Sequence record: PP925839.1
Direction: 5' to 3' (one strand)
From: Escherichia phage PinkRuby
DNA: 64,000 nt
This document shows, piece after piece, positions 23,289 to 23,349 of the stretch. The notes beneath the pieces were generated by a model that worked only from the letters and a program-made list of their open reading frames with translations, had not been told where the DNA came from and searched no databases. The number at the start of each line of letters is the position of its first letter. The stretch's first letter is position 1. Made by a program: the position numbers and the translations under genes.

Positions 23289-23319
23289 TTTGTGTTCCTC
23301 ATGTTATGTCAGTAAAACT

Positions 23320-23349
23320 ATTGTAACACAACACGAGGGACTTGTAAAC
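23320..23349 (-). promoter_or_regulatory. early promoter, cassette copy A
   Basis: Minus strand GTTTAC, 18 nt, TACAAT, then GAGGAA SD and ATG 23288. Confidence 0.65.

Follow-up and report, generated by a model that had tools for sequence, protein, structure and literature searches.

A repeated early-promoter cassette with a spacer complementary to the Shine-Dalgarno region in front of alc and alt.-3 in Tequatrovirus phages

In a 64,000-nt stretch of the genome of Escherichia phage PinkRuby (PP925839.1; the whole stretch is called the window here), the same block of sequence, reaching from the -35 element of an early-type promoter to a Shine-Dalgarno sequence (SD), fronts two unrelated early genes, alc and alt.-3. 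The spacer between the -35 and -10 elements of this cassette is complementary to the SD region downstream. RNA that enters the cassette from the gene upstream is predicted to fold into a long hairpin that buries the SD, whereas RNA begun at the cassette's own promoter would lack one arm of the hairpin and leave the SD exposed. At alc, this pairing recurs with different arm sequences in nine genera. The arrangement suggests a mechanism wherein alc and alt.-3 are translated or silenced according to the promoter from which their RNA originates, a model that we hold with moderate confidence.

Two copies of a -35-to-SD block

The window belongs to a Tequatrovirus; the 1.1 kb of it that was compared matches Escherichia phage Ge15 at 100% identity. 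A repeat search of the window recovered two minus-strand copies of the cassette, at the places where a prior reading of the DNA letters without database searches (the sequence-only reading) had put them. Their identity is somewhat higher than the 87% or so estimated there, at 50 of 54 positions (93%), or 50 of 55 (91%) if base 55 (23295 and 39085), which is unlike between the copies, is counted. The edges of the similarity are exact, from the G of GTTTAC to GAGGA, and the sequences flanking the two copies are unrelated. All four mismatches of the 54-mer fall within the -10 and loop part, which reads TACAATAGTTTT in copy A and TATAGTAATCTT in copy B; the complete minus-strand letters of copy A, from 23349 to 23296, are GTTTACAAGTCCCTCGTGTTGTGTTACAATAGTTTTACTGACATAACATGAGGA. 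There is no third copy of the 54-mer in the window, and the pattern CCTCGTGTT-N20-32-AACATGAGG matches it exactly twice. Neither the 54-mer nor this pattern was matched in any of 100 dinucleotide shuffles, so the repeat is not a product of chance. The parts of the two copies are as follows.

23296-23349, minus strand: cassette copy A, before alt.-3; G plus -35 TTTACA (23348-23343), 17-nt spacer, -10 TACAAT (23325-23320), predicted transcription start (+1) near 23313, SD GAGGA (23300-23296)
23297-23338, minus strand: predicted RNA hairpin of copy A; 5' arm CCUCGUGUUGUGUUA (23338-23324), 12-nt loop (23323-23312), 3' arm UGACAUAACAUGAGG (23311-23297), which includes the SD
39086-39139, minus strand: cassette copy B, before alc; G plus -35 TTTACA (39138-39133), 17-nt spacer, -10 TATAGT (39115-39110), predicted +1 near 39103, SD GAGGA (39090-39086)
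39083-39133, minus strand: predicted RNA hairpin of copy B; core arms as in copy A (5' arm 39128-39114, 3' arm 39101-39087), plus AAGUCC/GGACUU

Both copies have the form TTTACA-N17-TAnnnT with an extended -10 TG, and each scores 10 out of 12 as a sigma-70 promoter. Copy A (TACAAT) fits exactly the consensus TTTACW-N17-TAYWAT given for the promoter-early-stem-loops (PeSLs) of phages PST and T4, and copy B (TATAGT) departs from it at one base. Judged by these sequence features, each copy does contain the early-type promoter previously proposed for it. In all six genera first sampled, GTTTAC-N16/17-TAnnnT follows the upstream stop immediately at each of the two loci, and among the loci retrieved an early-type promoter directly follows the upstream stop in every enterobacterial T4-like phage sampled except Gaprivervirus RZ. 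No promoter features are annotated in the T4 records NC_000866 and AF158101; what other phage records list as 'promoter' are pattern matches to the late motif, which are irrelevant here.

The core stem, CCUCGUGUUGUGUUA/UGACAUAACAUGAGG, has 15 bp with three G-U pairs, and the shorter pairing CCUCGUGUU/AACAUGAGG noticed in the sequence-only reading is real and lies within it. The 5' arm consists of the promoter spacer and the first 2 nt of the -10. The loop holds the other 4 nt of the -10 and also the presumed +1, which is predicted to lie 1-2 nt before the 3' arm. This 3' arm ends in the SD, and the outermost pairs of the stem are SD/anti-SD pairs. Copy B has a stem extension in which AAGUCC (39133-39128) pairs with GGACUU, a partner that extends 3 nt beyond the repeat; its main stem comes to about 18 bp plus a C bulge. 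The minimum free energy (MFE) of the hairpin is -20.8 kcal/mol in copy A (z -3.8) and -24.4 kcal/mol in copy B (z -4.8).

RNA begun 7 nt past the -10 is predicted to be essentially unstructured (0 to -2.2 kcal/mol). We compared the two kinds of RNA by the predicted free-energy cost of opening the ribosome-binding site (RBS), taken as positions -14 to +3. For alt.-3, this is 14.0 kcal/mol in read-through RNA vs 3.1 in promoter-initiated RNA, and for alc 19.9-20.8 vs 1.5-2.8 kcal/mol. The predicted probability that the SD is paired in copy A read-through RNA is 1.00; since this measure is misleading for weak structures (0.98 at -2.2 kcal/mol), the opening energy was used in its place. The predicted folds agree with the earlier proposal that the -10 sits in the loop and the SD is hidden in read-through RNA, as only that RNA can form the hairpin. 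The Rfam 15 covariance models gave no match at either cassette (E<=1, across 22900-39400), and a sub-threshold match to Atu_C8 at 32362-32445 was taken as chance.

The genes around the cassettes, as called from open reading frames (ORFs) and Pfam matches, agree with the context described before: an alt paralogue and a 96-aa ORF at copy A, rnlA and alc at copy B.

22972-22993, both strands: hairpin resembling a bidirectional intrinsic terminator, closing both the alt.-3 unit and the convergent gene 54; the Ge15 record annotates a terminator too
22998-23288, minus strand: alt.-3, 96 aa, Pfam DUF5498, the sole gene of the copy A transcription unit
23349-25406, minus strand: upstream alt paralogue (685 aa) in the alt.-2 position; the last letter of its stop TAG (23351-23349) doubles as the G of GTTTAC
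38575-39081 (first ATG) or 38575-39078 (second ATG), minus strand: alc, Pfam ALC
39143-40303, minus strand: rnlA (gene 63), upstream of copy B; its stop TAA (39145-39143) lies 3 nt before copy B, and its transcripts would read into the cassette

The alt paralogue at 23349-25406 is the likely source of late read-through RNA into copy A, and no terminator-like site was called between the upstream genes and the cassettes at either locus. The alc gene opens with two adjacent ATGs (39076-39081, minus strand), the first 4 nt and the second 7 nt from the GAGGA. The second, at 39078, is likely the start, given the 167-aa annotation in T4 and the replacement of the first ATG by ATA in phage UFV10; with this start, the GAGGA-to-start distance is 7 nt at both loci. 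ORF callers that choose the first ATG add one residue. At the other locus, two full-length alt paralogues stand in tandem in this genome (23349-27506, minus strand; 685 and 698 aa), the second of which T4 has only as the fragments alt.-1 and alt.-2. The T4 deletion in the paralogue ends short of the cassette and retains the paralogue's final 25 nt or so.

Covariation at alc and the history of the cassette

The spacer in front of alc pairs with the SD in nine genera: Tequatro-, Gelderland-, Dhaka-, Marfa-, Karam-, Jiaoda-, Braga-, Kanagawa- (phage CIP9) and Winklervirus. The arms themselves differ in sequence among genera, for example AUCUCCGUUU/AAACGGAGAU, CCUCGUUUGUU/AACAAACGAGG and UCCUCAUUUCGUU/AACGAAAUGAGGA. 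The stems have 9-15 bp and an MFE of -12.7 to -25.4 kcal/mol, and opening the RBS is predicted to cost 9.5-20.8 kcal/mol in read-through RNA vs 0.3-2.6 in promoter-initiated RNA. On an unguided MAFFT alignment of the alc leaders, RNAalifold found 8 pairs, 6 of them with compensatory changes. Some arms are out of register in this alignment, which was kept without hand alignment to avoid fitting it to the structure, and we used per-sequence folds and a test of cognate vs non-cognate duplexes besides. Spacer-RBS duplexes average -17.8 kcal/mol for cognate partners and -9.9 kcal/mol for non-cognate ones, the observed mean was reached in none of 20,000 permutations, and for 9 of 11 phages the cognate RBS was the best partner in its row.

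The leaders of alt.-3 are built differently outside Tequatrovirus. In Gapriver-, Gelderland-, Mosig-, Dhaka- and Marfavirus, each has a small hairpin wholly within the -35/-10 spacer (retrieved-stretch positions 551-600, 513-565, 450-500, 497-545 and 502-550), and the predicted RBS opening is 2.0-4.6 kcal/mol. These spacer hairpins also covary across the five genera, with GCACaaggaaGUGC, CACACggaUGUGUG and CCACAuggAUGUGG as examples. The SD-sequestering design is thus found in nine genera at alc and at alt.-3 only in Tequatrovirus, which suggests that it is ancestral at alc and derived at alt.-3. Furthermore, the cassette's AAGUCC finds its partner GGACUU, part of which lies outside the repeat, only at alc. 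Together, these two observations point to the copying of the alc cassette onto alt.-3 in the Tequatrovirus stem lineage, and the alt.-3 copy is most likely a secondary copy of the one at alc.

A blastn search of 50,697 phage records with a 61-mer found 499 records and 997 places, essentially two in each Tequatrovirus genome, T4, T2-like phages and PST included. Wherever the locus was checked, the cassette was at alc and alt.-3, and the locus-specific flanks were found in 499 and 498 records. One genome with three places, vB_EcoM-G28, was examined: its third copy belongs to a 351-bp tandem duplication of the rnlA 3' end, the cassette and the alc 5' end, with junctions in the rnlA and alc coding sequence, outside the cassette, and it leaves a truncated copy of alc (retrieved stretch 32840-33260). 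Transposition was ruled out for this copy. A scan of IMG/VR with the outer-stem pattern gave 8 loci only; one of these is unrelated and was set aside as a chance hit, its loop being of another length and its surroundings not T4-like. The T4-type cassette also has a 100% match over 54 nt in MG010123.1 (Staphylococcus phage SAJK-IND, 32 kb) at 31824-31877, probably because the assembly is chimeric or contaminated.

Within the genus, we compared 18 copies from 13 sources, copy A of KMB40 included. Substitutions are confined to the loop with two exceptions, a G-U to A-U change in copy A of KMB40 and a U-G to U-A change in copy A of T4, both of which strengthen the pairing. The spacer is invariant in 17 of the 18 copies, the remaining one having a single G-to-A change that keeps the pair. 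The two copies within T4 are identical at 53 of 54 positions, and those within one IMG/VR contig at 54 of 54. T4, ASO78A and several IMG/VR contigs have one of two loop haplotypes, TATAGTAGTCTT, and G28, PP01 and UFV10 the other, TATAATAATCTT. Genomes read at both loci have the same haplotype at each or haplotypes one base apart, with Ge15 as a mixed exception. Because two derived bases are shared at paralogous sites 13-16 kb apart, the loop variants, compared directly in a small sample, point to gene conversion between the copies as the best explanation.

These results bear on the suggestion of the sequence-only reading that the cassette is mobile. Mobility would be limited to one ancient copying event and gene conversion; the occupation of the same two loci in 499 records and the tandem nature of the G28 duplication make the case for mobility weak. 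Confinement to two loci, as found in Tequatrovirus, is half of what that reading had itself named as counting against its proposal.

Proposed gating by promoter of origin and its alternatives

The best-supported mechanism, and in our judgment a probable one, is translational gating of alc and alt.-3 by promoter of origin. Host sigma-70 RNA polymerase would start about 7 nt past the -10, near 23313 and 39103 as judged from spacing. The resulting RNA would contain only the 3' arm of the hairpin, remain unstructured and expose the GAGGA, and Alt.-3 and Alc would be translated from it right after infection. RNA started further upstream, in late alt-paralogue or nrd-denA-rnlA transcripts, would in addition carry the 5' arm, made of the spacer of the promoter itself, and is predicted to fold into a stem of 15-18 bp that buries the SD. 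By analogy with the T4 genes e, soc, 49 and I-TevI, alt.-3 and alc would not be translated from such read-through RNA. The net effect would be a filter through which both proteins are made only while early promoters fire. In the Tequatrovirus ancestor, the whole alc cassette (-35 to SD) would have been copied to the alt.-3 leader, and the two copies may since have been held nearly identical by selection on the stem and occasional gene conversion. Omics data for T4 list alt.-3 and alc as early in both RNA and protein, rnlA as early in RNA and late in protein, and alt as late (PMC9697503). The upstream genes are thus transcribed when Alc and Alt.-3 are not made, as gating requires.

Several points weigh against this model. 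Exceptions at alc show that the design is not obligatory: Mosigvirus (AV115, NHEP10) has a local hairpin within the spacer only, with the SD uncovered; the hairpin of Kanagawavirus KLB31 spans the -10 and stops before the SD; the alc locus of Gaprivervirus RZ is rearranged, carrying a GGGG/CCCC stem and a duplicate of part of alc; and the distant phages Ac42, phiAS4 and S13 are further exceptions. The RNA sense strand folds more stably than its antisense in Tequatrovirus only (copy B, -24.4 vs -15.4 kcal/mol), a preference that comes from the three G-U pairs of the stem. Most stems elsewhere are pure Watson-Crick and about equally stable in sense and antisense, so covariation alone is also compatible with an inverted repeat acting at the DNA level. 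Nucleotide-level transcription-start data for T4 were not found in the literature searched, and the +1 positions are deduced from spacing alone. At alt.-3, the hairpin could have been carried along passively when the cassette was copied and have no selected role. Finally, the upstream stop lies only 10-11 nt before the stem, and ribosomes that terminate there might open it, in which case translation would be coupled across the stem and not blocked. Separately, the duplicate in RZ is an 89-aa copy of the alc N terminus behind a GGGG...CCCC stem with a T-run (retrieved stretch 15100-15420).

Such coupling, in which a ribosome finishing the alt paralogue or rnlA opens the hairpin and Alt.-3 and Alc are made from read-through RNA in proportion to upstream translation, is an alternative that we consider unlikely. 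It would account for the upstream stop being always just before the -35, 7-11 nt from the first paired base in all genera examined, and the SD/anti-SD pairs, being outermost, would be the first to open. Against this, the Tequatrovirus stem begins at the limit of what a terminating ribosome would cover, or past it, by an estimate from ribosome footprints, and some 50 nt would separate the freed SD from the stop. Both proteins are classed as early in T4 although alt RNA and rnlA protein are late, which speaks against substantial coupled late synthesis.

The classical PeSL role offers a second alternative: the stem-loop would terminate or attenuate upstream RNA, the promoter would restart transcription, and the repeats would serve mainly as sites for recombinational gene shuffling. 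The anatomy of the cassette fits the PeSL definition, PST and T4 are reported to have PeSLs of the promoter consensus cited above, and a PeSL stem-loop of phage phi1 cut lacZ expression like a strong terminator (PMC2839356, PMC4122927). The signs of gene conversion between the two copies and the partial duplications at the alc locus of G28 and RZ would also suit this role. However, there is no U-run after either stem, AACACAAAAUG and CUUUAUGAUG coming next, and no terminator-like call at either cassette in a scan that did pick up the true terminator at 22972-22993, a canonical one 300 nt downstream, after alt.-3. By sequence criteria, then, we reject the stem as an intrinsic terminator, and the terminator or attenuator feature of PeSLs is lacking here. 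This alternative also leaves unexplained why the SD forms the 3' arm in nine genera. As for shuffling, the cassette keeps to the same two loci throughout 499 records, the junctions in G28 lie in rnlA and alc coding sequence and not in the cassette, and a crossover between the copies would remove about 15.8 kb, including ligase, gene 31, cd and pseT. Taken as a whole, we find this explanation improbable.

The other early promoters of the window bear on whether the hairpin acts as RNA at all. Eight early-type promoters lie near a gene start, all on the minus strand, and the SD is sequestered at three of them, the two cassettes and gene 30.8 (PF06019; 31922-32290, minus strand). The promoter of gene 30.8, TTTACA-N17-TAGTAT at 32346-32290, is unrelated in sequence to the cassette; its spacer CUCCUUUGU pairs with the SD region ACAAAGGAG, and the predicted RBS opening is 9.7 kcal/mol in read-through RNA vs 0.0 in promoter-initiated RNA. 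At the minus-strand promoters with a -35 near 35813, 31916 and 47563, hairpins of 11-14 bp (-16.3, -16.1 and -15.9 kcal/mol) have their 5' arm within the spacer and their 3' arm around the +1, with the loop holding the -10; they leave the SD uncovered and are not followed by a U-run. The promoter at 48272 has a weak 4-bp spacer hairpin only, and folding gave no significant structure at 51573. With embedded hairpins at seven of the eight, such hairpins are common among the early-type promoters of the window. Elsewhere in the window, two tandem 288-nt repeats of 77% identity occupy 11334-11909 (plus strand).

These seven spacer-anchored inverted repeats, four of them clear of the SD, are in keeping with a third alternative, in which the hairpin has no RNA function at alt.-3 or at either copy. 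The identity of the two copies would then reflect only fairly recent duplication or conversion of a strong promoter together with early-promoter constraints (the UP element, -35, TGn, -10, +1 region and SD), or the inverted repeat would act in DNA, as a cruciform or protein site in early-promoter shut-off. T4 early promoters do have extended consensus regions past the -35 and -10 (PMC2988021), and the near-equal stability of sense and antisense folds outside Tequatrovirus suits a DNA-level element. We give this alternative little credence: neither promoter constraints nor a sequence-specific binding site would be expected to produce cognate-specific compensatory change between spacer and SD region over nine genera, the sense RNA is favoured by the three G-U pairs of the Tequatrovirus stem, and both stem substitutions observed within Tequatrovirus strengthen the pairing.

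Early promoters with anti-SD spacers may even form a general promoter-of-origin filter in T4-like phages, which would shut off translation of immediate-early proteins such as Alc, Alt.-3 and gp30.8 when the early promoters shut down, regardless of later transcription through their genes, and whose -35-to-SD portion would be a portable unit, copied and homogenised by conversion. We offer this extension tentatively, as a possibility less likely than not. Early protein synthesis in T4 stops abruptly, and RegB, ModA and AsiA explain this incompletely (PMC3014915, PMC2988021). Gating at alc and alt.-3, if real, would bear on this stop, and the general filter, if true, would be one candidate contributor to it.

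Gating would also provide a concrete post-transcriptional role for PeSL-type stem-loops, and the alt.-3 copy would represent a complete promoter-leader-RBS module transplanted between unrelated genes. In phage engineering, moving or deleting genes beside alc or alt.-3 would call for retaining the two arms together or taking both out. Alt.-3 is non-essential in T4, and its C-terminally extended variants block the CmdTAC defence system (PMC11618068), which gives this protein current relevance.

Comparison with known T4 designs

As a promoter, each cassette resembles the T4 early promoters described by Hinton (2010, PMC2988021) in its GTTTAC -35, 17-nt spacer, TG, TAnnnT -10, A/T-rich upstream sequence and association with genes of early RNA and protein. 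It differs from them in that its spacer is not free sequence and is instead complementary to the downstream SD region.

The likeness to PeSLs (Arbiol 2010, PMC2839356; Comeau 2014, PMC4122927) extends to the whole order of parts: an upstream stop, a sigma-70-like early promoter, a stem-loop overlapping the promoter, an SD and an ATG. The motif is repeated, one copy precedes a small gene of unknown function (alt.-3), the promoter fits the PST/T4 PeSL consensus, and the copies appear to exchange sequence. The stem, whose 5' arm lies within the spacer and whose loop holds the -10, belongs to the class described as overlapping the -10. Unlike the cassette stem, the published PST/T4 stem-loops are reported to lie just upstream of the promoter and have an AGNA-loop-TCNT consensus. 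The 3' arm of the cassette is the SD itself, whereas the PeSL papers assign a terminator or attenuator role to the stem-loop. The word 'translation' does not occur in the 2010 paper (PMC2839356), and in the parts seen of the two papers (PMC2839356, PMC4122927) SD sequestration is not proposed. Further, the cassette has only two close copies per genome, at fixed conserved loci, and no gene-content change or mini-circle linked to it was seen. The fit to PeSLs put forward in the sequence-only reading therefore holds for structure and promoter, fails for the terminator role, there being no U-tract or terminator call, and is weak for mobility.

The closest parallels in function are the T4 genes e, soc, 49 and I-TevI, in whose long transcripts the SD or AUG is buried and whose proximal late promoter lies in the region encoding the 5' strand of the hairpin (Uzan and Miller 2010, PMC3014915). 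In these genes and in mobE of phage Aeh1, RNA initiated upstream buries the SD or AUG, as is predicted for the cassette. In these genes, moreover, the proximal promoter is in or next to the 5' arm, its transcripts lack that arm and are translatable, and the design is conserved among related phages. What differs is the promoter. The known cases embed a late promoter, TATAAATA, and their hairpin silences early and middle read-through RNA, whereas the promoter embedded in the cassette is of the early sigma-70 type, and its own 17-nt spacer doubles as the 5' arm. This would reverse the logic: if gating is real, the cassette mirrors the control of e, soc, 49 and I-TevI, with translation delayed to the late period there and limited to an immediate-early burst here. 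The review by Uzan and Miller (PMC3014915) does not mention alc, and alc and alt.-3 are not among its examples. We regard the cassette as a new example of known T4 regulatory designs and not as a new type of element, and its promoters may already be tabulated as PeSL or Pe promoters. In structure it is of the PeSL type, and in function it would, by analogy, stand closest to e, soc, 49 and I-TevI, from which it differs in having an early promoter and not a late one.

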